DNA of 64,000 nt from Caulobacteraceae bacterium (GCA_965284385.1 OZ260077.1:288329-352328), one strand, 5' to 3'. Positions 11,817 through 48,506 are shown, numbered from the stretch's first letter. Numbers and translations are program-made. The notes: generated by a model not told the origin, from the letters alone.

Positions 11817-11823
11817 GGCCGCC

Positions 11824-26508: not shown

Positions 26509-26522
26509 TTGATCTATCGCAA
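26509..26522. promoter_or_regulatory. FixK/FNR-type box
   Basis: TTGATCTATCGCAA (TTGA-N6-GCAA), centred about 65 nt upstream of the ECF sigma ATG. Confidence 0.65.
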
Positions 26523-26580
26523 TCCCAGCCGACATTTCCGGACCGATCCTGCCTTCATGTTGAAGAGCGGGACTTGTCAG

Positions 26581-27267
26581 ATGAGCCTGAATTGCGCCTC
26601 CATATTGACCGCGGCCGGGACAGCGCGCGCTCCGCTCGGCCTTGTCCCGGCGTCGGCCCGTCCCGAGGACATTCACCAGCTCGTGGAACTCCGGCTTCGA
26701 AAGGGCCGGGCCGGCCATTTGCGTTTCCTCAGGCGACGCCTCCGGTCCCAGGAAGACGCCGAAGACGTTCTGCAGGAGTTCGCCCTGAAGGCCACCCAGG
26801 GTGCAAGACGCGTGACCAACCCCGGCAAGATTGACGCATGGCTCGGCATCGCGCTGCGCAACGCCCTGTTCGACCGCTACAGGCGCAATGCGAGCCGTAC
26901 ACGGCTGAATGAGGCCATGCTGTCGGAGTTTCCTGTACCCGCCGCAGATGATGCGCCCGAGGGTCTGGACCGGGCTTTGCAATGCTTGGCGGGAGCACTG
27001 GACGACCTGGGGCCGGAGACCGCCCAGCTCCTGCGGCGCGCCGAGCTCCAGGAGACGCCTCTGAAGGTGATCGCCCGTGAGATGCAGCTGACCACCAACA
27101 ACATCGGTGTTCGGGTCCACCGCGCCCGGGCGGCGCTGCGGGAACGCATGCAGGCGCGTTGCGGCGCCTGTCCGGAGCCCTGCGCCCTCGCGGCGCGGTG
27201 GAGGCAAGCCGTCGATACGGCGGGTCAGGCCTCGATATCGATCATATCGCCATGCGCCGCCGCATAG
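26581..27267 (+). CDS. ECF sigma-70 factor with Cys-containing C-terminal tail
   Basis: Region 2 (AEDVLQEFALKA...WLGIALRNALFDRYRR) and region 4 (LKVIAREMQLTTNNIGVRVHRARAAL), then CGACPEPC. Start uncertain. Confidence 0.8.
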   Translation: MSLNCASILTAAGTARAPLGLVPASARPEDIHQLVELRLRKGRAGHLRFLRRRLRSQEDAEDVLQEFALKATQGARRVTNPGKIDAWLGIALRNALFDRYRRNASRTRLNEAMLSEFPVPAADDAPEGLDRALQCLAGALDDLGPETAQLLRRAELQETPLKVIAREMQLTTNNIGVRVHRARAALRERMQARCGACPEPCALAARWRQAVDTAGQASISIISPCAAA

Positions 27268-28751
27268 TCGAGCGCATAGGCGAGTTCGCCCGCCGTCTCG
27301 GCGTGCACCGTCAACAATGGCTGGCCCGCTGAGACTTCGGTGCCCAGGCGCACCTGCATCTGGACGCCGGCGGCCTTGCGTTCAGGCGCGCCAGCCAGTT
27401 TGGCGAGCGTAGCGACCTGGCGGTTGTTGATGAGGATGACGCGGCCGGATCGGGTCGCATGGATGGGCGCCCGCTGGGCCGCGACGGGCGGTGTGCGCAT
27501 GCCCCCTTGCGCCTCGCAGATCCGCTCAAATCTTGCCCAGGCGCGACCATCAGCGAGAACAGCCTCGGCCGCTTGGGCGCCCAGACCCGCTTTCGCCACG
27601 CCGGCGAGTTCGAGCGCGGCGCCCGCCAGCAGGCAGGCGCGTTGGCGCAGGTCCTGCGGCGCTTCGGGTCGGTTCTGCAGCACCGCCAGGACATCAAGCG
27701 CTTCCAGCGCCGGGCCGATGCCGACGCCGACCGGCTGCTCCCCGTCGGTCTGAACGCAGAGGGCCTTCAGGTCGAACCGGGCCGCGATCTCGACGAGCCG
27801 TTTCGCCAACTTCGCGGCCGCCTCTCTCGTCCGCACCTTGGCGGTGGAGCCTACGGGAATGTCCAGCACCACATGGGTGGAACCCGCCGCGATCTTCTTG
27901 GACAGAACCGAGGCGATCAGCTGGCCTTCGGTGTCGACGTCGAGGACCCGCTCTACACGGATAAAGATGTCGTCGACCGGGCTGAGCTTCACAGCCCCGC
28001 CCCAGACGACGCAGCCGTTCTCGGCTTCCACCACGCGGCGCATGGCGGGCAGATCGAGATCGACCGGCGCCAGGGTCTCCATGGTGTCGGCCGTGCCGGC
28101 CGGTGAAGTGATGGCCCGCGAGGAGGTCTTGGGCGTGACCAGGCCGCAGGCGGCGAGGATGGCGACGACGATCGGCGTCGTGCGGTTGCCGGGAAGTCCG
28201 CCGATGCAGTGTTTGTCCATGACGATATCCGACGGCCAGCTCAGGCGGTCGCCGACGTCCACCATGGCCCGGGTCAGCGCCCCCGTCTCGGCGTCGTCCA
28301 TCGGCAGCACCGATGTCGCGGTCAGAAAGGCCGCGAGATGGATCGGCGTGTATCGCCCGGCGGCCACGTCCCTGACGACACCCCGGATCGCGGCTTCATC
28401 CAGCCGCGCTCCATAGATCCGGCGGCGAACGCTGGACATGGATTCGATGGCCGGAGCGTGTCGCACGACGACGGGATCGCCCGGCGCCACCGCCAACTGC
28501 CGCCAGGCCTCTTCGGAGAGCGCCGCCTCGTCGAGGCCGAGAACGTCGCCGTCCATCTGGTACAGGGTGGCGTAGACCTCCCGGCCGGCGGCCGAAAGCA
28601 CCACCTGGGAGCGGGACGACAGGCCTTCGGAGCGGCAGACGTGGCAGTCGCGCCGCATCAGCACGATCGACTCGTGCTGGGCGTACAGGCCGAAGCGGCG
28701 CGCTTTGAGGGGCGCCGCCGCATGGGGTGCAGTCTTGACCACTTTGCTCAC
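27225..28751 (-). CDS. Thymidine-phosphorylase family, AMP-phosphorylase-like
   Basis: DKHCIGGLPGNRTT, PKTSSRAITSPAGTADTME, SKKIAAG, plus an N-terminal extension. GTG start overlaps the upstream stop (GTGA). Confidence 0.88.
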   Translation of the reverse strand: MSKVVKTAPHAAAPLKARRFGLYAQHESIVLMRRDCHVCRSEGLSSRSQVVLSAAGREVYATLYQMDGDVLGLDEAALSEEAWRQLAVAPGDPVVVRHAPAIESMSSVRRRIYGARLDEAAIRGVVRDVAAGRYTPIHLAAFLTATSVLPMDDAETGALTRAMVDVGDRLSWPSDIVMDKHCIGGLPGNRTTPIVVAILAACGLVTPKTSSRAITSPAGTADTMETLAPVDLDLPAMRRVVEAENGCVVWGGAVKLSPVDDIFIRVERVLDVDTEGQLIASVLSKKIAAGSTHVVLDIPVGSTAKVRTREAAAKLAKRLVEIAARFDLKALCVQTDGEQPVGVGIGPALEALDVLAVLQNRPEAPQDLRQRACLLAGAALELAGVAKAGLGAQAAEAVLADGRAWARFERICEAQGGMRTPPVAAQRAPIHATRSGRVILINNRQVATLAKLAGAPERKAAGVQMQVRLGTEVSAGQPLLTVHAETAGELAYALDYAAAHGDMIDIEA

Positions 28752-30106
28752 AGCTCGTGCCGCTCCATCATCTGCGGGATGACGCAGTCCCATCCGAGCC
28801 GGTCCTGAATCCGGACCCGCAGGGCGTCCGCCGCATGGGGCTCGCCGTGAACGATGAAGGTCTTGCGCGGCGGTCGCTTGAGGCCGGAAAGCCAGCGCAG
28901 GATTTCCTCGTAGTCGGCGTGGGCCGAGAGCATCGGCAGGTTGGCCACCTCCGCTTTGACCTGAACCCACTGACCGTGGATCTTCACCTCCTTGGCGCCC
29001 TCGACCATCGAACGCCCGCGGGTTCCTGCCGCCTGGAAGCCTGAAAACAGGATGGTGTTGCGCCGGTCCGGGCCGAAGGCCTTGATATGGTGGAGCACCC
29101 GCCCGCCGGTGGCCATGCCGCTGGCCGAAAGGATGACCTTGGGCATGGGGCTGGCGGTGAGTTTCTTGGAGGCGTCCACATCGCGCACATAGGTGGCGAT
29201 GCCGCAGGCGGCGTCGCACACGTCGGCCGGCATGCGGTGGTCCTCCAGGTGCGCGCACAGGAGGTCGGTGGCGTTGATCGCCATGGGGCTGTCCATATAG
29301 ATCGGCGTCAGGCCGATCCGCCCCGCCTGCTTCAGCCGCCAGATGTGGTACAGCAGCGACTGGGCCCGGCCGACGGCGAAGGTGGGAATGACCACGGTCC
29401 CGCCGCGCGCGGTGGTGCGTTCGATGATCTCGCCGAGGGCTTCCGTGGGGTCCTGGGGGTCATGGAGTCGGTCGCCATAGGTCGATTCCACCACCACATA
29501 GTCGGCCTCCGCCACCGGCTCGGGATCGACCATGGTGGCGTCGCCGTAGCGGCCGAGATCACCGGAAAACAGGATGGTCGTCCCGTTCCACGTCACCTCG
29601 GCGGTGGCCGCGCCGAGGATGTGCCCGGCGCGCCGCAGCGTCAGGCTGGCTCCGCCCGGCAGCTGGACCGACGTGTGGAACGGCGTCGGGGCGAACCGCT
29701 CCACCGCGCGTTCGGCGTCGTGCACGCCATAGAGGGGCAAGGCCGGCTTGTGTTTGCCGTAGCCGTAGCGGTTGGCCTGTTCGGCGTCCTTTTCCTGGAT
29801 ATGGCCGCTGTCGCGCAGAATGATCTCCGCGACATCCCGCGTCGCGGCGCTGGCCAGGATGGGCCCGCGAAAACCGTCCTTCACCAGTTTCGGCAGGTAG
29901 CCGGAGTGGTCCAGGTGGGCGTGGGTCAGGACCACCGCGTCGATGCTTGAGGGCTCGATCTGGAGGGGGGCCCAGTTCTGTTCGCGCAGGGTCTTGAGGC
30001 CCTGGAAAAGGCCGCAGTCGATCAGGATGCGGCGGCCATCGGCCTCCAGCAGGTGTTTTGATCCGGTGACGGTGCCGGCGCCGCCGAGGCTGGTGAGACT
30101 GATCAC
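28748..30106 (-). CDS. MBL-fold beta-CASP nuclease (YSH1/RNA-processing type)
   Basis: GGAGTVTGS, DCGLFQG, LTHAHLDHSG, ESTYG, FAVGRAQ, SAHAD. GTG start overlaps the xfp stop. Confidence 0.9.
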   Translation of the reverse strand: MISLTSLGGAGTVTGSKHLLEADGRRILIDCGLFQGLKTLREQNWAPLQIEPSSIDAVVLTHAHLDHSGYLPKLVKDGFRGPILASAATRDVAEIILRDSGHIQEKDAEQANRYGYGKHKPALPLYGVHDAERAVERFAPTPFHTSVQLPGGASLTLRRAGHILGAATAEVTWNGTTILFSGDLGRYGDATMVDPEPVAEADYVVVESTYGDRLHDPQDPTEALGEIIERTTARGGTVVIPTFAVGRAQSLLYHIWRLKQAGRIGLTPIYMDSPMAINATDLLCAHLEDHRMPADVCDAACGIATYVRDVDASKKLTASPMPKVILSASGMATGGRVLHHIKAFGPDRRNTILFSGFQAAGTRGRSMVEGAKEVKIHGQWVQVKAEVANLPMLSAHADYEEILRWLSGLKRPPRKTFIVHGEPHAADALRVRIQDRLGWDCVIPQMMERHEL

Positions 30107-32484
30107 GATGGAGATCCTTCCGGGGGTGAAACTTGCAGGACGCGGGGGTGTGCTTCGCCGCGGACGGCGGCCAGCTCCCCGGGTGTCAGGACATCGGCCG
30201 CGTCGGCGCCGAGGAGGTCCGCACAGGCGACCGCGGCGTGAGCCCAGGTGCAGCGGTTGGCGAACAGCATGCCGGGGGTGTCGAGCGTCCCGCCACGGCT
30301 GAGGTAGCCGAGCGCCCGGGTGCGCTCGGGCCCTCCGTCGAGGCGGCGCAGCAGTCCGAGCATCGGCTCCGGGCGGGTGTGGGTGAGGATCAGACGGGGA
30401 AGGCGTCGGGGAAAGAGCGCTTCCAGCGCCTCGGCCGAGACCACGTGCGCCGCCTCGATCTCGTCCCTCGGGGCCCGGAATCGTCCCGGTTCGAGCAGAG
30501 CCGTGACACAGGCGCGGCGGCCATGATGCGTGAGTCGCGCAGCCGCCGCCAGCGCTTCCCGCGCCTGGTAGGCGCCGACCGCAACGATCTGGATCTCGGC
30601 CCTGTCCAGGTCCCCGGCGATGAGCGCCGCGCCCCGCTCCCAAAGATCCTGGGCCGCGGCCCCGTCGAGCACCTGCGGCAGCGTCCGTTTGGGCGTGATC
30701 AGGCAGGCGACCTCGCCGCGCCGGCCGTAGACCCCGCGGAGCGCGGCGACGGCGCTGTTGGCGTCCAACGGGAACAGCACCCGGGCGGTGTCCGACATCT
30801 CCCCGAGCAGGGCCTCGGCGAGCGTGGGATCCTGGTGCGACTGTTCGTTCTTGCCGTTCTCCCAGGTGTGGGATGTGGCCAGCAGCGGGACGGCGAGCCA
30901 TCCGGGGACCTGGCCGCTCTCGCGCTGATGGCGCGCGAAAATCACCTCCTGGCGCAGGAGACCCAGCATCTTCACCGCAAACGCTTCGTAGCTGACGATG
31001 AGATTGAGCCCGCCCTTGTTGCCGAGCGCGGCGCCGGCCACCGCTTCTTCATTGAGGGCGGTGATCACCGCCCCGTCGATCGCCTCGGGAACGCCGGGTT
31101 CCGGTCGGTTCACCCGGTGGCCAAGCCGGTCGAGCGTACGCCCCATGCCATTGCTGCGAAGCTCGTCGGGATTGCCGAGGCGGACGCGCAGGCCCGGGTT
31201 GGCGTCGACGAATTCCACGAACCAGGCGTCGATCGCCTCCATCGGGGACCTCGCCCTGTCCGACCAGTCCGGAATGGGCCGCTCGGGCGGCGGCGGCGCG
31301 CGCCGCGCGGCCGGATGGCGGCTTTCCAAAGGCCGGCGCTGCAGGTCGTGGGTCGTGAGAACCCCCAGGGCGGCGTCGAGCTCGCTTCCCTGCACGAACA
31401 GCGCCGCCGCCGCGGCGTTGAACGCCGCCCGCGCCCCCTCGTCCGTTCGAGGATCGCCCTCCAGTGGCAGGTTGTGGGCGCGGTTCGTCCCGGCGCCTGG
31501 AAAGCCAAACCCCTTGACCGCCCGCGCGATCACATAGGGCAACGCCGCCGGATAGGCCCGGGCGGGATCCGCTGTGAAGCGCTTCATCCGCTCGTCGGAG
31601 TCGAGAATGGCCCACGCCACGGCGGCTGGATCGTGACCGTCGATCTGGATCGGGTCGAAACCGTTCAGGCGCAGGTGTCGTTCGAGCCAGCCCGCGCCGC
31701 CGTCCTGGGCGATCTCCGTGCGCTCCTCTATGCGCCGCCCGTTGAGGATCATGAGGGGCGTCACCAGGCCGCAGTCTTCCGCCCGCCACCAGCGCGGGGA
31801 CCAGTCGGAGCCACGCTGCTCCTCGAAGGCGCCGTCGCTCAGGAAGGCGACAAGGCTCTCCCCGCGCAGCGGCATGTGGACATATTCGAGCTCGGCGAAG
31901 CCCAGATAGCCGCCCTCCGAGACGGCTCCGGCCGTGTCCGGCCCGGCATGGCTGCCAAGCGGCGCGGCGGGCCGGCCGTCGGCGCCAATGGCGTAGCTGT
32001 AGAAGTCCGAAACGAGCTGGGACAAGCCGGCGTCCGAGCGGCTGTACCGACCCTTTTGCCGGGCAGAGACATCGCCGGTCAGCGCATTGACCGCCTCGAT
32101 CGCAGCGACGCAGTGCCCCTGGCCCATAATCCAGGACCGCGTGACGCCGGACAGGGCGTTCGCCAGCAGATAGCCGACGAAGGCCGGGACCATGTTCAGC
32201 GAGCCGCCGGTATGGCCCTCCGGCAAGTCCTTGAAGGCTTCCGTCGGCAAGGGCGCTCCGGACAGATCCACCCGGCGTGCATAGGTCATGTGCGCCACCA
32301 GCCACATGCCGGCGCTCGCCAGCCGATCGGCGGCGGCCACCAGACGGTAGACCGACTCCTCGTCCGGCCAGACGCCTCGGCGCACGAGACGCTGCGCCAT
32401 GTCCTCGATCCGCGTGACGGTGTCGGCTTGCCGGACCAGAGGCCCATAGCCGGGTTTCCACGTTTCGGCCCAGGTGATCGACAC
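30103..32484 (-). CDS. xfp: Xylulose-5-P/fructose-6-P phosphoketolase
   Basis: GHTGGSLN, MGQGH, FLSDGAFEEQ, ILNG, NPDELRSN, SYEAF, SHTWENGKNEQSHQDP; about 793 aa. Confidence 0.88.
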   Translation of the reverse strand: MSITWAETWKPGYGPLVRQADTVTRIEDMAQRLVRRGVWPDEESVYRLVAAADRLASAGMWLVAHMTYARRVDLSGAPLPTEAFKDLPEGHTGGSLNMVPAFVGYLLANALSGVTRSWIMGQGHCVAAIEAVNALTGDVSARQKGRYSRSDAGLSQLVSDFYSYAIGADGRPAAPLGSHAGPDTAGAVSEGGYLGFAELEYVHMPLRGESLVAFLSDGAFEEQRGSDWSPRWWRAEDCGLVTPLMILNGRRIEERTEIAQDGGAGWLERHLRLNGFDPIQIDGHDPAAVAWAILDSDERMKRFTADPARAYPAALPYVIARAVKGFGFPGAGTNRAHNLPLEGDPRTDEGARAAFNAAAAALFVQGSELDAALGVLTTHDLQRRPLESRHPAARRAPPPPERPIPDWSDRARSPMEAIDAWFVEFVDANPGLRVRLGNPDELRSNGMGRTLDRLGHRVNRPEPGVPEAIDGAVITALNEEAVAGAALGNKGGLNLIVSYEAFAVKMLGLLRQEVIFARHQRESGQVPGWLAVPLLATSHTWENGKNEQSHQDPTLAEALLGEMSDTARVLFPLDANSAVAALRGVYGRRGEVACLITPKRTLPQVLDGAAAQDLWERGAALIAGDLDRAEIQIVAVGAYQAREALAAAARLTHHGRRACVTALLEPGRFRAPRDEIEAAHVVSAEALEALFPRRLPRLILTHTRPEPMLGLLRRLDGGPERTRALGYLSRGGTLDTPGMLFANRCTWAHAAVACADLLGADAADVLTPGELAAVRGEAHPRVLQVSPPEGSPS

Positions 32485-32679
32485 GATAGCGCCTTGCCAC
32501 GAACAGGCGGACGCCGTGCCCGCTCCGGAAATATGACGCCCGCCCCCCGGAACGCTTACATCTCCCGGATAGACGGCCGACAAGATCACCGGATCCAGAC
32601 CTGTGCTCCCCGCCTGTATGGCCGAGCCCGGCCATGAACTCCCGGTTCTCACCGCCCACGCCCGGCGCGGCGCGACAGC

Positions 32680-33129
32680 TTATGCGCGGGGGCCCATGCG
32701 CCCCGCGTCGGCCCAGGACAGCGCAAGGGCCACCACCCACGGCAGGGTGAAGCCCAACAGCAGCCATCTGAAATCGGAGTTGATGGCGAAGTTGGTGACG
32801 GCCATGCCGCCGATCGATACCAGCCCCGAGACGGCCGCGATCATCGTCGCGCCGCGCCGGCCAGACCGGAAAGTCGTCATCGCGACATGGACGGTCAGCA
32901 GACCGGTGGCGAGCATATAGCCCCCGAGCACGCCGAAGACGCGCCGGAGCCACGGGGCCAGCCGGGGCAGGATGTCCTGGATCTGCGCCACGGTGGATCC
33001 CATGTATCTGGCGTCTTCAGGCAGCAGCGCCGGTCGCATGAAGACGAAGTAGAGTCCCAGGCCGATGAGGATCAGTCCCCCCACGGCGAGAGCGCCCGCC
33101 GCGAGAGACCGCAACCTCACCCCGGTCAT
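32680..33129 (-). CDS. Hypothetical membrane protein
   Basis: Four hydrophobic segments; ATGA-type overlap with the upstream gene. Confidence 0.65.
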   Translation of the reverse strand: MTGVRLRSLAAGALAVGGLILIGLGLYFVFMRPALLPEDARYMGSTVAQIQDILPRLAPWLRRVFGVLGGYMLATGLLTVHVAMTTFRSGRRGATMIAAVSGLVSIGGMAVTNFAINSDFRWLLLGFTLPWVVALALSWADAGRMGPRA

Positions 33130-33620
33130 GGAAGCCGTTCGTCCCGGTGATCGGACGGGGCTTGACGGCCACCCAACTCGATCAGATCCGTCTGACCAAA
33201 GGATCGGCTGTAATCCAGAAGTGACACAATGGTCGGGCGCAGGCGAACGACAGCCACCCCCTCGAACACCGCCGCCGGCGCAGGCCGCCCCGGTCTGGGA
33301 AACTTCTTCAGAACCAGTCCGGCCACGTTCAACAGCTCCCCGGGGTCCGTAACCCGCTGCGCCACCGCCGCGAGCGAGATCGCCTGGATGGGTTTCGACG
33401 TCTCATGCTCGGGGGTGACGGTCGCTGACACCCGGGAGTCCCGGGCGATGTTTTCCAGCTTCTGCGAGTGAAAAGTCGTCCCGAAATAGAGGTCGAGGTC
33501 GTCGTTCACGAAACTCACGACCGTCGCCTGCGGCCAGCCGTCTTCACGGACCGTCGCCACGGTCAGGGTGTCTGCCCGGCTGAGAATGGAGAGGATCAAC
33601 TCTCTCTGTTCAAGGTCCAA
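33126..33620 (-). CDS. Pyridoxamine-5'-phosphate-oxidase-like FMN-binding protein
   Basis: LTVATVREDGWPQATVVSF...LYFGT...KLENIARDSRVS; TTG start with GGAGG RBS. Confidence 0.8.
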   Translation of the reverse strand: MDLEQRELILSILSRADTLTVATVREDGWPQATVVSFVNDDLDLYFGTTFHSQKLENIARDSRVSATVTPEHETSKPIQAISLAAVAQRVTDPGELLNVAGLVLKKFPRPGRPAPAAVFEGVAVVRLRPTIVSLLDYSRSFGQTDLIELGGRQAPSDHRDERLP

Positions 33621-33699
33621 CTCAAATCCTCCAGGCGGCAAGCGACGTTGGACGGCGACAGCAGAGTGCGCGGGAGCTCCGCCGTGCCGCCCTCAACAG

Positions 33700-34227
33700 T
33701 CAACCCGGATGGCGCTCAAGCCAGGATTCCAGTGCGGCGATCTCTGGCGTCACCGTATCAACTACGGCCTGGGCCATGCGGCGGGCTTCAGGGTCTGGCG
33801 CATCACTGCCCAGCAGCGCCTGTGACATCGCGATGGCCCCGCGATGGTGGGCGATCATCTTGCGGGCCCACGTGCGCTGTGTGTTCACGTCGGTCGCCAT
33901 CATCATGGCGCGGTGCATGCCCATCTCGGCCTCGGAGAAGACGGTCCGAGGCACGTTCATCCCCGGCGGCATCGCATGATCCTGGCCCATCATGCCACCA
34001 CCGGAGACGGCTTGCGGCATGCCCATGCCCGGCGGCATCGCGTGACCCTGGTTCATCATGCCGCTGCTCGAGGCTGGCTGTGGCATGTTCATGCTGGCCA
34101 TCGGCCGATCCGGCATCGCCATATCGGCGTCTGACGCGGTGGCGGCGCACCCGGCGGCGGCGAGCAAGGACAGAGTCGACAACGCAATGGCCGTCCGCCT
34201 GACGGGCCGTTCGGAGAAGTTAAACAT
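33700..34227 (-). CDS. DUF305 (CopM-like) Met-rich periplasmic or lipoprotein
   Basis: Signal/lipobox LLAAAGC, Met/His-rich repeats, MIAHHRGAIAMS...MAQ..I..Q/V..EI motif. Confidence 0.75.
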   Translation of the reverse strand: MFNFSERPVRRTAIALSTLSLLAAAGCAATASDADMAMPDRPMASMNMPQPASSSGMMNQGHAMPPGMGMPQAVSGGGMMGQDHAMPPGMNVPRTVFSEAEMGMHRAMMMATDVNTQRTWARKMIAHHRGAIAMSQALLGSDAPDPEARRMAQAVVDTVTPEIAALESWLERHPG

Positions 34228-34291
34228 GGGGGTGGATCCTTTGGATCTAGTCACCAGCCAACCGGACGTGACGTCCAGACCGCGGCGACTG

Positions 34292-35587
34292 TCATTTCAA
34301 CGAACGCCGTCGCCGTTGGTTCAGTTCGCCAGGCGAGGCGCAGCCGGGTCGGCGCCGGCCGAGCATCCGGGGCAAGCCGAGGCTGAGCACCACGCCGAAA
34401 ACGGTCACCGCGGCCATGACGAGGAACGACGCATCGGGCAACCAGGCGACGTCGTACAACAACCCTCCCGCCGCCGAACCGACGGCCGCCCCCAGGCTTG
34501 CAGCGGCTGTCTGCTTGCCGAGTTGCGCCCCTTGAGCCTCGCCGGCCTTGCTGGAGGTCCAGTAGGTCAGGATCGGCGCCAGAATGCCGGCGCTGGCCGC
34601 CACCGCGCCGATCACCGCGAGCATCAGGTTGAAATCGGTGGCGCGCGGCAGCAGAAACAATCCGATCCCCAGGACAGCCAGCGCCGGCGCGATCAGCCAG
34701 CGGGTCGTCGAGGGTTTGACCCAGGGGGAAAACACAAGGGCCTGCACCACGAGCATGACCAGGCTGCACTCCGTGAACATCAGTGCGATCTGGGTGGGGG
34801 TCATGCCCAGTTCCTGTTTCCCGCGCAGCGCCAGCCCGACCTCGAACACCCCTACTCCGGCCGCGACGATGAACCCCAGGATCAGCAGATTGGGGATCAG
34901 CCAGCGGCTTGTCGGCGACACCGTGGCGTCAAGCGTGGCGAGCCGACCCTGGCTCCGGGTTCGCGGCAGGGCGAAGACGGCAGCGCCGGCGATGGCAAAC
35001 GCCAGAACGGCCGTCGCGGCCAGCGGAAACGTCAATGACGCCATCGGATCGGCGGTCGCGACCATGTCGGCGCCGGCGCGAGCGATGAAGACGCCCAGCA
35101 TGGGTCCCAGTAGAAATCCCGAAATCCCCGCCAGGCTGACGAAGGTCAGGCGGCGCGCCCGCGCCTCTTCGGTCGCCGCCAGATCTCCGACGGCGGCCAG
35201 CGCCACCGGCGTGACAGCTGCGGCGAACAGGCCGCTAAGGACACGCTCCGCGTAGACGGCGACGAGGCTCTCGACGAAGGCGAAGACCAGCATGGTGGCG
35301 CCGAAGCCGATCAGGCCGATCAGCAGGACGACACGGCGCCCATACCTGTCGGACAGGCGTCCCCACATGGGCGCGAAGAGAAACAGCGACAGCATGTAAA
35401 GGCCGGTCAGCAAGCCTGTCGCCCGGGAGATCTGTCCTGCCTCAGCCCCCCCGCCAAGCAGCCGTTCAATCAGGAAGGGCAGCAGGGGCAGGACGACTCC
35501 GAAGCCCATCGACACCGTGAAGGCCGACGCCATAAGCACGGCCATGGTTACGGGAGAAATGTTCGAGGATTCGGCCCTCTCGTTCAT
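34292..35587 (-). CDS. MFS transporter (TetA/DHA1-like)
   Basis: Motif A WGRLSDRYGRR; about 12 transmembrane segments. Confidence 0.88.
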   Translation of the reverse strand: MNERAESSNISPVTMAVLMASAFTVSMGFGVVLPLLPFLIERLLGGGAEAGQISRATGLLTGLYMLSLFLFAPMWGRLSDRYGRRVVLLIGLIGFGATMLVFAFVESLVAVYAERVLSGLFAAAVTPVALAAVGDLAATEEARARRLTFVSLAGISGFLLGPMLGVFIARAGADMVATADPMASLTFPLAATAVLAFAIAGAAVFALPRTRSQGRLATLDATVSPTSRWLIPNLLILGFIVAAGVGVFEVGLALRGKQELGMTPTQIALMFTECSLVMLVVQALVFSPWVKPSTTRWLIAPALAVLGIGLFLLPRATDFNLMLAVIGAVAASAGILAPILTYWTSSKAGEAQGAQLGKQTAAASLGAAVGSAAGGLLYDVAWLPDASFLVMAAVTVFGVVLSLGLPRMLGRRRPGCASPGELNQRRRRSLK

Positions 35588-36747: not shown

Positions 36748-36841
36748 GGACGGCCTCGATGAACGCGGTCGGTCCATCGCGCTACCCCACGAAGACAGGG
36801 CGACAACCGGACCTCCGTGCCGCGAAGGGCGGTGCGTTGTT

Positions 36842-39274: not shown

Positions 39275-39361
39275 GGCTGCTTTCTGACTGGTGACGGGAC
39301 GTCCGAAGGACACCCCGCTCGATTGTCTTCGCCCTCTCTGACGGCGACGACCCGGCTCTCG

Positions 39362-40447
39362 TTACAAATCTATCTCGGGCAGCGGCGACTCCGACGTCCA
39401 GACCCGCTTCCCGGCGAACAGGTCGTTGTCGATCCCCATGGCCAGATCCGTCGCGGCGATCGACCGGCGGCCCGACGTCTCGCGTCCGTCGAGCGCCCTT
39501 ATGGCGTCGATGGTTTCCGGCACGACGATCGCCTGATTGTCGACCATATAGGCGTAGAAGAGTTCATCGCCCTGCACCGTGAGCATGTCGGCCCAAAGCG
39601 CCACCTCATAGAGGTCGCTGCGGGATCGGCCCCGATCCGCCATCAGCTCCTTGACGGCATTGAGGGCATCCAGACCATACTCGTCCTTCATCAGCAGGAT
39701 GCGTGACGAGGATCGGAAGGCGTCGAGCACTTCCTCCTTGGCCGCCGGTCGGGTCATCTGGACCGACCAGTAGTGCAGGTGGGCGATGGTCTCCGGCACC
39801 TTGACCGCCATGGTCACCACATCGAGGTCCGGATCGACGGTTTGGGCGTCGGGACCCTGGTGACTGGGGATTTCGGGCTCCGGGACGAGGGTGTTCATGA
39901 TGCCGCCCTGGTGGCTTTCCCACGGATCGGTCGCGCGTCGAAGCAGGGTGCCCCGGGCCCGTAGAAGCAGACCGGCGCGCTTGAGAGCGCCCAATGTCCG
40001 TACCGTCGCGGTCGTATTGCAGGAGACCACCCGGGTCGCCTGGCGGCCGACAGCCGTCTCGTAATTGGCCTCCGCGACGAAAGAGTGTCCCGTGACGGCG
40101 TGCTTCTCTCCCCCCTGAAGGATGAACTTCAGGCCCCGGGCTCGGTAGAGGGGAACGTTGTCCGCCGCCACGTGCTTGGGCGTGCAGTCAATGATGACAT
40201 CGACCTCGCCCAACAGATCGTCCAGCTGACCGGCCGTTTGGCGTCCCGCGGCCCGGAGTTCGTCAAATGCCTTGGGCGTGGCGGCAAAGAGCGGCACGCC
40301 CTTGGTCTGAAGGACCCGGGTGCGCCAGTCCGTCGCGACGTCGGCGACGCCGATCAGGGTCATGTCCTTCTGAGCCTTGACCGCATCGGCGACGCGTTTG
40401 CCGATGACGCCATATCCGTTCACGGCGACCCGTATTGGTTTGATCAT
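39362..40447 (-). CDS. gap: Type II (archaeal-type) glyceraldehyde-3-phosphate dehydrogenase
   Basis: VAVNGYGVIGKRVADAV, DCTP, QGGEK, VVSCNTT, RRATDP, PSHQGPD. Confidence 0.9.
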   Translation of the reverse strand: MIKPIRVAVNGYGVIGKRVADAVKAQKDMTLIGVADVATDWRTRVLQTKGVPLFAATPKAFDELRAAGRQTAGQLDDLLGEVDVIIDCTPKHVAADNVPLYRARGLKFILQGGEKHAVTGHSFVAEANYETAVGRQATRVVSCNTTATVRTLGALKRAGLLLRARGTLLRRATDPWESHQGGIMNTLVPEPEIPSHQGPDAQTVDPDLDVVTMAVKVPETIAHLHYWSVQMTRPAAKEEVLDAFRSSSRILLMKDEYGLDALNAVKELMADRGRSRSDLYEVALWADMLTVQGDELFYAYMVDNQAIVVPETIDAIRALDGRETSGRRSIAATDLAMGIDNDLFAGKRVWTSESPLPEIDL

Positions 40448-40498: not shown

Positions 40499-40512
40499 TT
40501 GATCCGGATCAA
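40499..40512. promoter_or_regulatory. Perfect FNR box
   Basis: TTGAT-CCGG-ATCAA between the divergent gap and pgmB genes. Confidence 0.85.
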
Positions 40513-40613
40513 AGTTCGGCGCGCCGGCGCATGTCACTCTGGGTCGATGGCGGATGAACCGGAAGCCCGACACGAATGACCGCAAAAGCCGCATCGTGGG
40601 CGGATCGCAGCGA

Positions 40614-43621: not shown

Positions 43622-43925
43622 CGGTCAGCATTGTCTTAGCCGAGGTCGACGCAACGGGTAGGCGTGCGGCCGCCTCCCTTGAGGTCACGCCTCACACCGG
43701 CTTAACTTGCTCAGGACGACCATAGCCAATTCCTCGTCGGCGGCGACGACGCCCGCGGCGCGCGCTAGATGTTATTCAGGCGCGTAACGCGCGTTCTACT
43801 CAGTTGCGCTCATTTGCGTTGGCTTTTGACACTGCGCCGACAGGCGTGGCGAGCGGCTCATTGTCGAGCGTCACTGGACATCACTTTCGTTTCGCTGCAA
43901 GCGTCGCGTTGCGGGGCGAAAACAG

Positions 43926-44972
43926 ATGAAACGCAGCGACCGCGTAACCCCGGACCAGAAGCGGCCTCCGGCAGAGTTCCCCTTCGGCGAAGATTTTCAA
44001 ACCATCTTGTCCTTGATCGGGGATGGCGTGGTCAGCACCGACCAGGATGGTCGCATTATTCTGTTCAACCGAGCGGCCGAAGACATTTTTGGCTACACGA
44101 TGAACGAAGTGCTTGGCTATTCAATCGATACTCTCATTCCAACGCGTTTTCATGACCACCATCGCGAAGACGTCAAGCGCTTCTGTTCGTCAGACGCCCC
44201 GTTGCGCCGATCCATGGGGGCCGGCCGCGAAGTCCTCGGACGACGAAAGGACGGTCGGGAACTGGCCATCGAGGCGACGCTCTCTCGGCAAATGATCGGG
44301 GGCCAACACATCGTCACGGCCGTGGTCCGTGATGTCAGTGACCGGAAAACTGTGGAAAGGCAGGGTCAGGTCGTCGCGAACGAGGTCGCTCATCGCCTGC
44401 GGAACACTATGGCGGTCGTCGATTCGATCGTGACGCTCACCGCCCGAACGGCGCCGTCTGTCGCCGAATTCAAAGAGGCGCTGTTGGGGCGTTTCGCGGC
44501 CATATCGCGCACGAACGATTCCCTTATTCGCGGCTCATGGACCGAGGCCAGCGTTCGCCTTCTCCTTGAAACAGAGCTGGCCCCTTACCAGGACAGCGAG
44601 GGAAAGATCACCCTCACAGGACCGGATATCAGTATCGATGGGCAGGTCGCCGTGGCATTGGCGCTTGTCCTCCACGAACTGGCGACAAATGCGGCCAAGT
44701 ATGGCGCGCTTTCAACGTCAGCCGGGCTGCTGCGCGTGGATTGGCAAGTGTCGGCGGACGCAATCCCTCTGATTGAACTCCTCTGGGAGGAACGGGGCGG
44801 GCCCACGGTTGTCGCACCGACGCGCCGGGGATTTGGAAGCGAACTTATCGCTCGCAGCCTTGGCCCCCATGGCGGTAAAGCCGCCTCGACCTATGCACCG
44901 CAGGGCGTCAACTGCCTCATCAGGCTGCCGTTCCGTAGCGTCAGCCGACCAGCGGACAATCCTGTTCAATGA
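43926..44972 (+). CDS. PAS-domain HWE-family sensor histidine kinase
   Basis: PAS (FNRAAEDIFGY...GRRKDG), H-box EVAHRLRN, ELATNAAKYG, WEERGGP...RGFGS. Confidence 0.9.
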   Translation: MKRSDRVTPDQKRPPAEFPFGEDFQTILSLIGDGVVSTDQDGRIILFNRAAEDIFGYTMNEVLGYSIDTLIPTRFHDHHREDVKRFCSSDAPLRRSMGAGREVLGRRKDGRELAIEATLSRQMIGGQHIVTAVVRDVSDRKTVERQGQVVANEVAHRLRNTMAVVDSIVTLTARTAPSVAEFKEALLGRFAAISRTNDSLIRGSWTEASVRLLLETELAPYQDSEGKITLTGPDISIDGQVAVALALVLHELATNAAKYGALSTSAGLLRVDWQVSADAIPLIELLWEERGGPTVVAPTRRGFGSELIARSLGPHGGKAASTYAPQGVNCLIRLPFRSVSRPADNPVQ

Positions 44973-45040
44973 CTGCAACTCCGGCCCCTCGGCGGAGCCG
45001 ATGACTTTTGCCGGCGGCGGCGCCTGGCGAGGTCAGGATG

Positions 45041-45979
45041 TCAGCCGGCCAGGTCCATACTCGCGAGAGCTTGCTGCAAAGCCTTTGCGGATGCACCCAG
45101 CATTGTGTTCTCCGCGGGGGACAGCGCCGGCAGCAAAATCCTCTCGACCCCGCCGGCCCCGAGGATGCACGGAAGGCTGAGGCATACATCGGCGAAGCCG
45201 TATTGTCCGGTCAACAGCGTCGACACCGGCAGCACCGCCCGCTCATCGCGCAGTATGACCTCGCATATCCGCACAATCGCGGTCGCGACGCCGAAGGACG
45301 TGTAGCCCTTTCCCTGGACGATACGGTAGCCGGCGTCGCGCACTTCCGTGGCGATCTGGTCCTGGTCGAGTTCCTGTCCCGAAGGACAGAAATCGCTTAG
45401 CGGCAGCCCTCCGACCAGGACCGTAGAGAATGCGGCCACCTCGGTATCGCCATGCTCACCCAGAACGACCCCATCAATGGACCCGGCCGCGACCCTCAGG
45501 CTCTCGGCGAGGGCTTGTTTGAGACGGCTGGAATCGAGCAATGTGCCCGTGCCGATGACCCTCGCTGCGGACAAGCCTGAGCGCCGCAGCGCCACCAGCG
45601 TCATCAAATCCACCGGGTTGGCGGCGACAAGGATGATCCCCGTGAAACCGGCCTGGACCAGTTCTCCGACGCAGGTCGAGACGATCATGGCGCTTTGCGA
45701 CGCGACCGACAGGCGACTTTCCGCGCCGTGCGTCGCTGCTCCGGCGGTGATAACGGCGATCCGGGCTGTCGCCGCATCGGCGTAGCTTCCCGCCCAGATG
45801 CGCGCGGGTCTGGCAAGGGCGTTCGCATCGGAGAGGTCGGCGGCTTCGGCCTCGGCGAGCCCGGCGTCACTGTCGATCAGGACGATCTCGCGGACCAACG
45901 CGCGAAGCATCAGCGCATAGGCGGCCGTCGATCCGACGTGGCCTGCACCGACGATCACAATCCGGTCGTGTGCGATCAT
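45041..45979 (-). CDS. ldh: L-lactate dehydrogenase family
   Basis: IVGAGHVG, ANPVD, GTLLDSSR, GEHGD, KGYTSFG. Confidence 0.88.
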   Translation of the reverse strand: MIAHDRIVIVGAGHVGSTAAYALMLRALVREIVLIDSDAGLAEAEAADLSDANALARPARIWAGSYADAATARIAVITAGAATHGAESRLSVASQSAMIVSTCVGELVQAGFTGIILVAANPVDLMTLVALRRSGLSAARVIGTGTLLDSSRLKQALAESLRVAAGSIDGVVLGEHGDTEVAAFSTVLVGGLPLSDFCPSGQELDQDQIATEVRDAGYRIVQGKGYTSFGVATAIVRICEVILRDERAVLPVSTLLTGQYGFADVCLSLPCILGAGGVERILLPALSPAENTMLGASAKALQQALASMDLAG

Positions 45980-46016
45980 CGGATAGTCCTTCCTGTCGGC
46001 GCGGCTGGTGTCGGCC

Positions 46017-46520
46017 TCACCGCGCCGCCTCCATGCCGGCGGCGCCGACGGAGAAACATTCTGATCGACTTCGGCCCTGGGTGACGCTGACGGCCGAGAT
46101 GATCTCGGGTTGGATCCGGATCAGGGCGACCGAGTCGCCCGATGGGCAATAGACACTGAGGCCCGGATAGCGCGAGAAAACGAGCTGGTTCAGATGCTCG
46201 ATATCCTCGGCGACGGTCACCTCCTCCGCCCTGCCGGCCAGGGACAGCCCCACGGCGCCGTCCGCGGCGCTCTCGCTTCTTATCGCGGCGGAAACGCGGG
46301 GATCGGCCTGAATATTCGCCAGCTTCTGACTGTCGCGCGCGGTCACGAAATACAGATTGAGCCCCTCGTTGACATAACCCAGCGTCGTGACCTGGGGCCA
46401 TCCGTCCGGTCGGTTGACGCCCAGGCTCATCAATCGTTCGCTGGTCAAAAGGACCACAACGGCGTCGACCGCCCGCCCGTGGATGGGTGTACAGCCCGGC
46501 GTGACGTCCTGGATCGGCAT
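46017..46520 (-). CDS. Pyridoxamine-5'-phosphate-oxidase-like FMN-binding protein (second paralog)
   Basis: LGVNRPDGWPQVTTLGY...LYFVT..DSQKLANIQADPRVS. Confidence 0.8.
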   Translation of the reverse strand: MPIQDVTPGCTPIHGRAVDAVVVLLTSERLMSLGVNRPDGWPQVTTLGYVNEGLNLYFVTARDSQKLANIQADPRVSAAIRSESAADGAVGLSLAGRAEEVTVAEDIEHLNQLVFSRYPGLSVYCPSGDSVALIRIQPEIISAVSVTQGRSRSECFSVGAAGMEAAR

Positions 46521-46572
46521 CGGAAAAATTCCTCGCTGGAATCACCCTTGGCCCGGCTCAGGGACAACGGCT

Positions 46573-46586
46573 TTGATCTGGCTCAA
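46573..46586. promoter_or_regulatory. FNR/FixK box
   Basis: TTGATCTGGCTCAA, about 60 nt upstream of the start at 46520. Confidence 0.7.
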
Positions 46587-47359
46587 GCACCCCCCGGGTA
46601 TTGCAGTTCGCCGTCTGCAAGAGCGCGCAGCATCTCACGATGGACGATCCTGAGTTCGGACCGTGACAACAGTTGGATGACATCCTGCTTTTTCAACCTG
46701 GTCAGAACGCGGCTCACGGTCTCGATCGTCAGACCCAGATAGTCCGCGATCTCGCCGCGCGTCATCACCAACCGGACACGATCGGCACGAGTCGGACGCA
46801 ACGGGTCGTGGCCGGGGAGATCGAGCAGGAACCAGGCCACGCGTTCGATCGCCGTTTTGCGCCCGAGCAAGAGCATCTGGTTCTGAGCGGCGGCCAGCTC
46901 ATGCGAGGTCCGGTTCAACAGGGCGTGCTCCAGGGAGGGACAGTCCTGGATCAGCGACCTGAATGCGGTTTTCCGGAACCGGCATACCGACGCCGGCTCC
47001 ATCGCCTCGGCGGAGAAGACATAGGCGTCACCGACGGCCAGACCGAGAAAGTCACCCGCAAAGAGAAAGCCGATGATCTGACGGCGACCATCGGGCAGGA
47101 GTTTGTAGACCCTGATCGAACCCGAGGAGATGTTGAAGATATGCGGCGCGCGGTCGCCTTCACGGATCAGGACCTCACCCGCCGCGAGCATGACGGGTTC
47201 AGCAATGGCTGCGAGCCGATCCATGGCGATATCGTCTGTGCTGCCGCAAACGCTGAAGGCTCGCGCCCCACAGCTACCACAGACGTTTAAAGGTCGCCGA
47301 TCCGCACACCCGGCTGGAAGGGTGGTAAGCGCCAGCCTTGGTGTCGTCCTGGCTTCCAT
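46583..47359 (-). CDS. fnr: Crp/Fnr regulator, [4Fe-4S] FnrN/FnrL type
   Basis: N-terminal C-x2-C-x7-C (CGSCGARAFSVC), central Cys (SVCRF), HTH with ETVSR. Confidence 0.9.
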   Translation of the reverse strand: MEARTTPRLALTTLPAGCADRRPLNVCGSCGARAFSVCGSTDDIAMDRLAAIAEPVMLAAGEVLIREGDRAPHIFNISSGSIRVYKLLPDGRRQIIGFLFAGDFLGLAVGDAYVFSAEAMEPASVCRFRKTAFRSLIQDCPSLEHALLNRTSHELAAAQNQMLLLGRKTAIERVAWFLLDLPGHDPLRPTRADRVRLVMTRGEIADYLGLTIETVSRVLTRLKKQDVIQLLSRSELRIVHREMLRALADGELQYPGGA

Positions 47360-47391
47360 GGCGTCGGACGCGGTTCCGCTCTCAGATGTTG

Positions 47392-47405
47392 TTGACGTGA
47401 ATCAA
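47392..47405. promoter_or_regulatory. FNR box (candidate autoregulatory site)
   Basis: TTGAC-GTGA-ATCAA between fnr and the divergent ORF at 47440. Confidence 0.8.
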
Positions 47406-47439
47406 AGCGCGGTGACCCCGGACGTTCCAGTTTGACCGG

Positions 47440-47868
47440 ATGACCGCCGCTGTCGTTAGTCGATTGGTCCGAGCCGCGATTGACGAATCCTTCGTCCTGG
47501 CGCGCCTGGGATACCCCGACCTGACCTTGATCGCCTGGCGACGGGCTGCGCGGCGACAGCTTGACCGTAGCGCTGCCACCGGGGGCATCCTGATCGCCCG
47601 GGACGCCGTCGGGCGCCTGAATGGTCTGGTGCTCTATTCGCATTCCGCCTGCATCGCGGCCAGGCCGTGCGTGCAGATCGAGCGACTGGTGAGCTTTGAC
47701 GTCTCTTCCCCCCGATCTGTCGCCGACAAGCTCGTCTCGGAGGTCATGCGCCTGGGTCATCTGGCTGGCTGCGACAGCCTGAGCCTGGTTCGCCCCTGCC
47801 GTCCGCCCGCCGACACAACGCCCCTGGTTCTGGCGTCCGAGACGTCGGTTGCATGCCAGATGTTCTGA
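47440..47868 (+). CDS. Hypothetical protein (possible GNAT-like fold)
   Basis: Clean ORF divergent from fnr; GILIARDAVGRLNGLVLY...GCDSLSL pattern. Confidence 0.55.
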   Translation: MTAAVVSRLVRAAIDESFVLARLGYPDLTLIAWRRAARRQLDRSAATGGILIARDAVGRLNGLVLYSHSACIAARPCVQIERLVSFDVSSPRSVADKLVSEVMRLGHLAGCDSLSLVRPCRPPADTTPLVLASETSVACQMF

Positions 47869-48051
47869 GGGGAGCGGTCTGCGTCAAGTCATTCCTCTCA
47901 TCCGCAAGCCCGCCCGACATCCCGGAGGGATAGGAGAGTCGCGGTCGCTTCGTCTGCGAAATGTCTCCGCCCAAGACCGGTACTGTGACGACCTCGGCCA
48001 GAACGATAAGGCGGGGCACCGTTGAAGCATCGGCCGGCGCCCGCTGGCCGG

Positions 48052-48459
48052 CTAAGGTCTCGAATGGTTCTGCACATCCTGAAGGTAGGCGATCAGATCC
48101 GCGATCTGGTCGCCCTCCAAGGTGATTTCCGGCATCTTCCTGTGGCCGTTGGTCATGCCCTCGGCGAAGGCTTCCTGAAGATCCGTCACGGGATAACGGG
48201 TTCCCAGGTGGCGGAGCGGGGGCGCGGCCGCCACCGGGCTTTCGCCGGTCGGCCCGACCGAATGGCACGCCGCGCACCGGCTCTGCACGAGCGCTCGGCC
48301 CCGCGCCGCCGAGACGAGGTCCACAGCCTGTTTGGGATAGTATTTCGCCGCTTCAGCCGTGCCAGCAGCTTCGCGAAATTCGGGACCAGCCGTACATCCC
48401 GTCAGCATCAACACGCCGACAATCGCGATCAGCCTCAAGACGCTCTCCATACCGCACAT
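48052..48459 (-). CDS. Class I cytochrome c, probable lipoprotein
   Basis: CAACH heme motif, lipobox MLTGC, GHRKMP axial Met. Confidence 0.85.
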   Translation of the reverse strand: MCGMESVLRLIAIVGVLMLTGCTAGPEFREAAGTAEAAKYYPKQAVDLVSAARGRALVQSRCAACHSVGPTGESPVAAAPPLRHLGTRYPVTDLQEAFAEGMTNGHRKMPEITLEGDQIADLIAYLQDVQNHSRP

Positions 48460-48492
48460 CGACCAGCCTGATCTTCGACGAGGCGCCCGGCA

Positions 48493-48506
48493 TTGATCTC
48501 GATCAA
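48493..48506. promoter_or_regulatory. Perfect FNR box
   Basis: TTGAT-CTCG-ATCAA upstream of the cytochrome c gene. Confidence 0.85.

Follow-up and report, generated by a model that had tools for sequence, protein, structure and literature searches.

A probable low-oxygen gene module with its own Fnr regulator and FNR boxes, associated with a conjugative backbone in Brevundimonas DNA

The described system closest to the locus analysed here is the lxa cluster of Burkholderia cenocepacia J2315, a strain-variable set of 50 genes that is induced up to 240-fold at low oxygen and is needed for anoxic survival (Sass et al. 2013, PMC3721108). A TGA-N6-TCA motif recurs there at 17 points between genes, and the cluster itself codes for BCAM0287, an Anr-related regulator of the CRP family, as well as for six universal stress proteins, polyhydroxyalkanoate (PHA) synthesis and a class II ribonucleotide reductase; it was not predicted as a genomic island (PMC3721108). 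We analysed a stretch of 64,000 nucleotides from a Caulobacteraceae bacterium (GCA_965284385.1 OZ260077.1:288329-352328; hereafter the window), whose closest relatives are Brevundimonas genomes. The window comes from a Brevundimonas chromosome or element and opens with a conserved conjugative backbone (1-13 kb), after which the DNA is mosaic cargo. Part of this cargo is a probable low-oxygen module of the lxa kind, which encodes an Fnr of its own, would be controlled through FNR boxes and is associated with a Caulobacterales conjugative element family. A first-pass annotation of the same DNA had described positions 26509-48506 as a self-contained mobile Fnr regulon. Literature searches on Brevundimonas with FNR or an integrative and conjugative element (ICE), and on lxa with mobile elements, turned up no earlier account of this module.

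The window module and lxa are alike as strain-variable clusters of an obligate aerobe, in encoding an Anr/Fnr-like regulator of their own and in carrying an FNR-like motif at several intergenic sites. By annotation names alone, the two also overlap in acetate kinase, a metal-dependent RNase (beta-CASP), cytochrome c551/552, a cation ATPase and an ABC/outer-membrane exporter. They differ in content, as the window module holds instead GH65 and beta-phosphoglucomutase (beta-PGM) genes, a type II glyceraldehyde-3-phosphate dehydrogenase (GAPDH), an L-lactate dehydrogenase (L-LDH) and a haem-PAS HWE kinase, and in setting, as it adjoins a conjugative backbone. Anoxic persistence is the role proposed for lxa, and by analogy we propose it for the module.

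Rhizobial plasmids that carry fnrN or fixK with anaerobox-bearing fixNOQP and fixGHIS have long been known. Like the arrangement proposed here, they combine a transmissible replicon, a regulator with boxes before its own gene and its targets, and chromosomal paralogues reading the same box. Rhizobial targets are the cbb3 oxidase and symbiotic functions, whereas those in the window are fermentative and central-carbon genes. The plasmid database PLSDB contains 229 plasmids that encode an Fnr homologue (124 from Rhizobium), all with less than 60% identity to the window Fnr. At class II promoters of Escherichia coli FNR and Pseudomonas aeruginosa Anr, the cysteine ligand set, the E-SR helix and the box are the same, and the site centre near -41.5 in the window is inferred from start-codon spacing; many window-type targets differ in that they appear leaderless from their predicted starts. 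The core Brevundimonas fnr-cydDC/cydAB-hemN locus and the Caulobacter FixLJ-FixK-FtrB hierarchy share the regulator family (65-69% identity), the box and a homologue, divergent from fnr, of the small window gene h47440. The core copy controls bd oxidase and hemN. Genes for ldh, pnpox, GH65 and gap2 are instead found linked to the module copy, which differs between genomes in copy number and location.

Genes were called from codon-position GC and named with Pfam and NCBIfam. The regulator gene is the following.

46583..47359, minus strand: fnr, 258 aa, FnrL/FnrN-type Crp/Fnr; Pfam cNMP_binding PF00027, HTH_Crp_2 PF13545 and Crp PF00325, all above gathering cut-offs

As the first-pass annotation had reported, the translation contains the cluster cysteines and an ETVSR helix (...NVC27GSC30GARAFSVC38G...SVC126RF...GLTIETVSRVL...). 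The cysteines are arranged as C27-x2-C30-x7-C38 plus C126, and ETVSR is the recognition helix within GLTIETVSRVL. C27, C30 and C126 align with the CxxC and the central cysteine of the solved Aliivibrio FNR (5cvr/5e44 family). The third N-terminal cysteine is offset, its spacing being x7 rather than the x5 of the solved protein and of E. coli FNR (C-x2-C-x5-C); x2/x7 is the FnrN/FnrL pattern. The helix aligns with ETISR of FNR and ETVSR of FixK2. Cysteines and helix are invariant in eight Brevundimonas paralogues and orthologues, and the protein is 98% identical to that of a Brevundimonas metagenome-assembled genome (MAG), 95% to that of Brevundimonas mediterranea DSM 14878 and 93% to that of MAG UBA7534. 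Searched for as an exact sequence, Fnr was found on a single 4.7-kb contig only, and the strawberry-notch helicase of the backbone (see below) had no record. Judged by its sequence, the module Fnr has all the hallmarks of an oxygen-sensing [4Fe-4S] regulator.

We searched the window for the TTGAT-N4-ATCAA consensus (TTGATNNNNATCAA) and scored sites with a weight matrix of 22 columns, derived from 160 distinct boxes of other Brevundimonas loci. Four strong boxes were identified.

40499..40512: perfect box TTGATCCGGATCAA, between gap2 (minus strand) and pgmB (plus strand), score 27.4
46573..46586: box TTGATCTGGCTCAA, one mismatch, overlapping the fnr stop codon, score 23.0
47392..47405: box TTGACGTGAATCAA, one mismatch, common to the divergent fnr and h47440, score 19.1
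48493..48506: perfect box TTGATCTCGATCAA, between the cytochrome c gene (minus strand) and h48561 (plus strand), score 29.0

The two perfect boxes compare with 0.00 expected from 100 shuffles, and the four boxes with at most one mismatch compare with 0.46 expected, a number reached in 0/100 shuffles. Matches to TTGA-N6-TCAA in the window were the same four sites only (0.15 expected). In the matrix scan, the next-best site of the window scored 11.4, and from there down sites occurred at background frequency. All four strong boxes are intergenic, although the intergenic share of the window is only 10.7% (P ~1e-4), and they are restricted to a 9-kb module at 40.3-49.2 kb.

Much of the first-pass description of these boxes was confirmed: it had given 40499 and 48493 as perfect, had listed 46573 and 47392, which are one-mismatch sites, had placed the boxes near gene starts and had seen none in the backbone intergenic regions. 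In our scan, positions 1-13032 hold no box scoring at least 12. About 120 kb of backbone relatives contained a single box at that threshold, scoring 14.4. The comparison of cargo with backbone by matrix scan, which it had proposed, gave a divided result, with enrichment in 40.3-49.2 kb and a density of weak matches equal to that of the backbone in the cargo outside it. Therefore, box enrichment is a property of one 9-kb module and not of the whole 26.5-48.5 kb span, and enrichment over the entire cargo is ruled out. Positions 18669 and 21872 had been put forward as one-mismatch candidates. Both have two mismatches (the latter lies at 21862-21875) and background scores, and neither is conserved in B. 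mediterranea (locus L011) despite 97% identical flanks; they look like chance matches.

We collected 80 loci encoding relatives of the window Fnr (these and further related contigs are cited by L numbers where they need to be told apart) and aligned the orthologous spacers, in which the four strong boxes were kept while their flanks diverged. The gap2/pgmB box is a perfect palindrome in L002-L004, L006 and L010 though its central four bases and its flanks change, and it is also found upstream of gap2 in L089. For the box at 46573, the half-sites and the first three spacer bases are identical in 11/11 loci compared and the fourth spacer base alone varies; it is kept despite unalignable flanks in L007, L011, L012, L017 and L018, and probably serves the pnpox2-ldh promoter. 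The fnr/h47440 box and its spacing are kept in L002-L006, L010, L013 and L015. In most of the 80 loci a box directly precedes fnr, and a box before the regulator's own gene is the autoregulatory arrangement known for fnrN. The cytochrome c box lies upstream of the orthologues in L002-L006, L010, L013, L015, L026 and L038, at the same distance from the start codon. On these alignments and counts, we regard all four strong boxes as very probably functional.

Distances were measured from the centre of each box to the start codon, also for a weak box upstream of a sigma factor gene (see below), and were as follows.

47440, ATG of h47440: 41.5 nt
26557, in-frame ATG of the ECF sigma factor gene: 41.5 nt
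48459, ATG of the cytochrome c gene: 40.5 nt
47359, ATG of fnr: 39.5 nt
40554, ATG of pgmB: 48.5 nt
40447, ATG of gap2: 58.5 nt
46520, ATG of pnpox2: 59.5 nt
48561, GTG of h48561: 61.5 nt

A purine-rich, Shine-Dalgarno-like sequence precedes the gap2 and pnpox2 starts. Among 258 distinct boxes from the window and loci L005-L081, with the start taken as the first ATG opening an open reading frame (ORF) of at least 80 codons, the centre-to-start distance was bimodal, with one peak sharp (39.5-42.5 nt) and the other broad (56.5-64.5 nt). With predicted starts, this spacing would fit class II sites at -41.5 and mRNAs of which some are leaderless and others start with a leader 15-23 nt long. Caulobacter commonly has leaderless mRNAs, and the bimodal spacing would imply many leaderless FNR-dependent genes in Brevundimonas. 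A promoter and terminator consensus scan of 27-47 kb gave matches at background level and no convincing terminators.

The genes at the strong boxes, and those in the runs behind them, are listed here.

39362..40447, minus strand: gap2, type II (archaeal-type) GAPDH, first gene of the minus-strand run; NF003251 440.8 bits against a cut-off of 185
27225..39313, minus strand: rest of the run, comprising copA (36842-39313), alpha/beta hydrolase, MFS, DUF305, PNPOx, a 149-aa membrane ORF and the next three genes
30103-32652, minus strand: xfp, divergent phosphoketolase-like protein, 849 aa, far below every phosphoketolase cut-off
28748-30106, minus strand: bCASP, beta-CASP MBL RNase, aCPSF1/Cas14-like
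27225-28751, minus strand: TP, archaeal-type thymidine-phosphorylase-family protein, passing TIGR02645 and NF003338
40554..43621, plus strand: pgmB and GH65 pair, a beta-phosphoglucomutase-family HAD hydrolase and a GH65 disaccharide phosphorylase/hydrolase; bPGM and GH65 matches below NCBIfam cut-offs
43926..44972, plus strand: orphan PAS-HWE histidine kinase; Pfam HWE_HK and PAS
45041-45979, minus strand: ldh, L-lactate dehydrogenase; TIGR01771 323.7 against a cut-off of 303.55
46017-46520, minus strand: pnpox2, PNPOx/FMN-binding split-barrel protein
47440..47868, plus strand: h47440, 142 aa, unassigned family, divergent from fnr and sharing its box
48052..48459, minus strand: small monohaem cytochrome c with a lipoprotein-like signal; Pfam Cytochrom_C

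The 40499 box had been described as heading both a 13-kb minus-strand run, from gap and copA to an AMP phosphorylase, and a divergent pgmB-GH65 pair. The pair and the gene order from gap2 and copA to TP are correct. The name AMP phosphorylase was rejected, as the product of 27225-28751 scores 468.6 against the TIGR03327 cut-off of 535 and passes the thymidine phosphorylase models. One long minus-strand transcript is possible because gaps behind gap2 are at most 64 nt and xfp, bCASP and TP have start/stop overlaps. Beyond gap2, control of the 13-kb run by the 40499 box is no more than a possibility, since copA-mfs, pnpox-DUF305 and xfp-bCASP-TP form separate blocks in other contigs and no box was found in front of them. 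The type II GAPDH, the TP-family protein, the beta-CASP RNase and the 849-aa phosphoketolase-like protein are archaeal-flavoured enzymes in an alphaproteobacterium, and the last three, whose genes are translationally coupled, recur with prs in many metagenome contigs.

The genes pnpox2 and ldh (45041..46520), separated by a gap of 37 nt, probably form one operon. h47440 has no match in Pfam or NCBIfam, and its AlphaFold2 single-sequence model was unusable (pLDDT 41.6); homologues of about 140 aa adjoin fnr divergently in both module-type and core-type loci (for the latter, L029 9495-9905). In the PDB, the PAS domain of the orphan kinase matched FixL haem domains and DosP (E 1e-13 to 1e-11), and a further match was to the kinase core of Brucella LOV-HK (E 2e-36). 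In this PAS domain, the histidine in HDHHRED aligns with that in FixL RSRHDSY, which we take to be the proximal haem ligand. The domain resembles haem-PAS oxygen sensors in this alignment, and the kinase may be a second sensor. No response regulator is encoded beside it, and its gene is kept in the module in L002-L006 and L010.

The box at 26509, which the first-pass annotation had counted with the others, is a weak variant upstream of a gene for an extracytoplasmic function (ECF) sigma factor.

26509..26522: weak variant box TTGATCTATCGCAA, two mismatches, score 8.6
26557..27267, plus strand: SigZ-like ECF sigma factor with a Cys-rich C-terminus; Pfam Sigma70_r2 and r4_2; NCBIfam sigma70-ECF superfamily above cut-off

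Taken alone, a score of 8.6 is background level. The variant TTGATYNNNCRCAA precedes the ECF gene by an equal distance in L012, L090, L092, L094-L097 and L101. More generally, a TTGAT(C/T)NNNC(G/A)CAA variant was found in nine other loci with ECF orthologues 60-74% identical, 163-167 nt from the same reference codon. At the equivalent position, a perfect box TTGATCCCGATCAA is present in the Phenylobacterium zucineum plasmid (L001, 16571) and in L099. Because it is positionally conserved upstream of ECF orthologues, we retained 26509 as a probable low-affinity Fnr site, and the sigma factor is a candidate second-tier regulator. An ECF gene with a nonconsensus box at a fixed distance, perfect in Phenylobacterium, suggests a cascade from Fnr to a sigma factor.

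The fnr loci fall into types. cydA is near fnr in 34/80 loci, and 26-28 others are module-type, with ldh, pnpox and GH65 genes. In L029, the only cydA-type locus fully annotated, the order is h136, box, fnr, cydDC, perfect box, cydAB and hemN. Both types are present in several genomes; in B. mediterranea DSM 14878, a single core fnr and three module copies lie within about 90 kb. Besides the 95%-identical copy, contig 2 of this strain (809-860 kb; L011 and L018) holds two fnr-pnpox modules whose Fnr is 68-69% identical, no more than about 90 kb from that copy. The insertion point of one of them is exactly the junction of the h22068 and h22616 homologues, which are adjacent in the window. Contigs from the source sample, aligned to the core fnr-cydAB locus L025 of B. 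mediterranea, gave patchy matches of about 80-87%, apparently from a mixed assembly.

Core and module Fnr are 65-69% identical and have in common all the cluster cysteines and the whole helix EIADYLGLTIETVSR. On this sequence match, cross-talk between the two is likely, and because cross-regulation is expected, the term self-contained is too strong. What stands of it is that the module has its own Fnr with boxes; the extent does not, being four strong sites within 9 kb plus one weak conserved site and not 22 kb. The related suggestion, that the element plugs into host control, is plausible given the invariant helix and cysteines and the use of the same box by the core locus.

Taken together, we consider it probable that the 9-kb module at 40.3-49.2 kb, set in mosaic cargo, works as an autoregulated switch for low oxygen. 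By analogy with characterised FNR proteins, the module Fnr would keep its [4Fe-4S] cluster, ligated by C27, C30, C38 and C126, when oxygen falls. It would then dimerise and bind the TTGAT-N4-ATCAA boxes, which would be centred about 41.5 bp upstream of transcription starts, the position of a class II activator, and would activate rather than repress. The four strong boxes would switch on fnr and h47440; pnpox2-ldh; cytochrome c and h48561; and gap2 (perhaps with copA and further genes) and pgmB-GH65. The fifth, weaker conserved site may feed the ECF sigma factor. Such a set could serve as a kit for an aerobe without oxygen, in which the phosphorylase would mobilise a disaccharide into lower glycolysis with lactate as the electron sink, and with acetate kinase and the phosphoketolase-like enzyme nearby. 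The core Fnr of the host and the element Fnr, with the same DNA-reading helix, would probably act on the same sites.

A broader scheme, which we offer tentatively and regard as rather unlikely in its full form, is that Caulobacterales conjugative elements and plasmids trade a modular "anoxia survival kit" with layered control. In it, the element Fnr would act on class II, largely leaderless promoters and, through TTGAT-N4-CGCAA, on the ECF sigma factor, which would reach box-less genes (icmt, P-type ATPase, prs, and those for the archaeal-type TP-family protein, beta-CASP RNase, phosphoketolase-like protein and acetate kinase). The haem-PAS HWE kinase would be a second oxygen input.

Several observations weigh against the proposed switch or parts of it. 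There are only four to five sites in all, compared with 17 in lxa, and none of the remaining cargo (ackA, xfp-bCASP-TP, prs, cus and ABC transporter genes) has a strong box. No universal stress protein (PF00582) was found among about 60 ORFs scanned, compared with six in lxa. The best NCBIfam matches of the window Fnr were FnrL (148.6, cut-off 300), FixK of Caulobacter (145.9, cut-off 300) and Fnr (118.8, cut-off 228); as it falls below all three equivalog cut-offs, its sequence places it in the family outside the named orthologue groups. The enzymes would fit substrate-level ATP formation and redox balance with lactate as electron sink, and this pathway is tentative because xfp falls far below, and pgmB and GH65 also below, the model cut-offs. 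A search for isolate RNA-seq data sets that contrast oxygen levels found none. Two sediment metatranscriptomes contain 99%-identical contigs over 43.8-49.5 kb and almost none over 30-43.8 kb, a pattern that suggests RNA more than DNA. These contigs cross both divergent spacers (47131-47824 and 48333-49027), which is unexpected for strictly leaderless genes and may reflect longer or overlapping transcripts or DNA carry-over. Having no oxygen contrast, they neither prove nor disprove the promoter model. Finally, the window has no integrase among the ORFs scanned, no type IV secretion or coupling protein genes, no tRNA gene, and no att site or element ends.

The association with a conjugative element rests on the left part of the window.

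1..13032, minus strand: conjugative backbone, with RlxS-like relaxase with DUF3363 (truncated at the window edge), YAcAr/DUF2493, GcrA paralogue, SSB, 1455-aa strawberry-notch (Sno) helicase, ParB-like protein, Toprim/DUF7146 and RadC

The backbone thus includes a relaxase and DNA-processing or leading-region genes (SSB, ParB-like, RadC, Sno helicase and Toprim). The same Sno helicase, ParB-like, Toprim, RadC, SSB, GcrA and DUF2493 set with an RlxS-like relaxase is found in RlxS elements of Alphaproteobacteria, the plasmids of Caulobacter sp. S6 (NZ_CP073079) and P. zucineum HLK1 (NC_011143); in the window, no Trb genes, replication gene or integrase accompany the backbone. Its nucleotide identity to Caulobacter and Phenylobacterium plasmids is 71-72%, and Trb type IV secretion genes are present on the plasmid of Caulobacter sp. 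S6. Cargo extends beyond the right edge of the window (64 kb), and the element may continue past both window ends.

Whether the fnr region is cargo of this element bears on the word mobile in the first-pass annotation, which is supported by a conserved conjugative backbone with variable cargo next to it and weakened by the missing integrase, type IV secretion genes and ends. We favour the view that it is cargo, at about the same confidence as the switch itself. The competing account, in which the low-oxygen cluster is chromosomal DNA or a separate island beside the element end, is unlikely in our judgement and still deserves real weight. It draws on the same absences in the window and on L087, where the backbone stops at the Toprim gene and a TonB-dependent receptor gene comes next; the cfa end of the cargo in B. 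mediterranea L011 is preceded by a P-type ATPase gene and not by backbone, and module-type fnr loci lie in many Brevundimonas chromosomes with no backbone genes within 10 kb. Against it, the backbone is 93-97% identical in L083-L088 over 1-11.8/13.9 kb while both sides differ, and its relatives carry different gene sets at exactly the cargo junction: beyond RadC, L083, L086 and L088 lead to the h22616 homologue, L084 to cfa and L085 to yflT. A backbone of about 60% amino-acid identity lies again beside the same cargo pool in L098. Blocks 93-98% identical are common to named species and MAGs in mosaic order, and the cargo has a G+C content of 62-66%, 4-8% lower than the backbone (70-73%; about 68% overall). 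A homologous gene set is also present on the conjugative plasmid of P. zucineum, whose cargo includes prs, TP-family, beta-CASP and type II GAPDH genes, ICMT with a P-type ATPase, an ECF sigma factor behind a perfect box, and an ABC-2 exporter.

Even if the boxes are real, they could be served mainly by the host core Fnr or a FixK-like paralogue, leaving the module as a client and its Fnr redundant, a fine-tuner or a competitor. Core and module proteins have identical recognition helices and cysteines, the core fnr-cydDC/cydAB-hemN locus uses the same box, and genomes such as B. mediterranea DSM 14878 hold one core and three module copies. We nevertheless find this reading doubtful, as an fnr preceded by a box has been retained in each module-type locus, a sign of selection on the local copy. 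It is more improbable again that the signal is not oxygen through the Fnr cluster, with another Crp/Fnr sensor (e.g. an NO-responsive Dnr/NnrR) binding the palindromes or the output passing via the haem-PAS HWE kinase. TTGAT-N4-ATCAA is common to several Crp/Fnr subfamilies, a FixL/DosP-like PAS kinase sits inside the module, and a second, distant Crp/Fnr gene (29-37% identity) occurs in L041, L066 and L067; yet the regulator next to the boxes combines all the FNR cysteines with the E-SR helix, nearly all of the 80 loci link a box to fnr, and the kinase has no response regulator beside it. That the boxes are chance palindromes without function would suit the weaker matches (18669, 21862 and others scoring 8-11), which occur at background frequency, and is effectively refuted for the four strong sites, which exceed every shuffle, are all intergenic and are conserved where their flanks are not. 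The autoregulated switch carried as cargo is the explanation we prefer.

The remaining cargo flanks the fnr module and its minus-strand run on both sides.

13.5-22.6 kb: lipid-remodelling cargo block, with YflT, cyclopropane-fatty-acid synthase (CFA), acyltransferase, GT4, DUF6629, DUF5676 and oleate hydratase
24024..25238, minus strand: acetate/propionate kinase; Pfam Acetate_kinase, TIGR00016 above cut-off; no strong FNR box of its own
Between acetate kinase and the minus-strand run: DUF2933-ICMT, then the ECF sigma factor
Beyond the fnr module: right-hand cargo, with cusCBA, prs, ABC-2/HlyD exporter and a second P-type ATPase running off the right edge

The lipid-modification block (13033-22600) has a lower G+C content (61-66%) and is missing from L083, L086 and L088, in which the RadC region leads directly to the h22616 homologue. 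The gene product beside acetate kinase has no matching family in Pfam or NCBIfam, and its sequence suggests an ATP-grasp-like protein. Metal genes are interleaved with the low-oxygen genes: cusCBA (49230-55182, minus strand) and the CopA-type ATPase (36842-39313, minus strand), and further copper or heavy-metal genes for DUF305 (33700-34254, minus strand) and the second P-type ATPase (62945-64000, plus strand). A D-2-hydroxyacid dehydrogenase remnant (56593-57150, minus strand) lies between the prs and ABC-2 permease genes; the gene is intact on the P. zucineum plasmid, and the break in similarity with L002-L004 falls at this remnant. In the backbone, the paralogue of the cell-cycle regulator GcrA (2856-3332, minus strand) is also found on the Caulobacter sp. 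S6 plasmid and in 6/6 backbone relatives. Beyond the relaxase of L083-L088 (~14-20 kb) we observed sets of KAP NTPase, DUF4007/BrxC-like (BREX-like), UvrD-PDDEXK and LmuB-like (Lamassu-like) genes; these anti-phage-type sets at one junction look like a defence hotspot beside the relaxase.

Brevundimonas species count as aerobes and occur in water, soil and clinical settings. Sequences near-identical to those of the window were found in sediments, biofilms and groundwater, and a transferable, self-regulated low-oxygen module could explain persistence there. The lxa-type strategy would then not be confined to Burkholderia, and the module could travel with conjugative DNA and with copper and metal resistance genes. 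If the idea of an anoxia survival kit is true, one transfer would give a strict aerobe fermentative ATP and anoxic persistence. The conserved boxes with fixed start-codon spacing offer promoters on which FNR-dependent activation of leaderless Caulobacterales genes can readily be tested. With this finding, a regulatory design already known reaches a new genus and a new genetic vehicle; the current understanding is not overturned.

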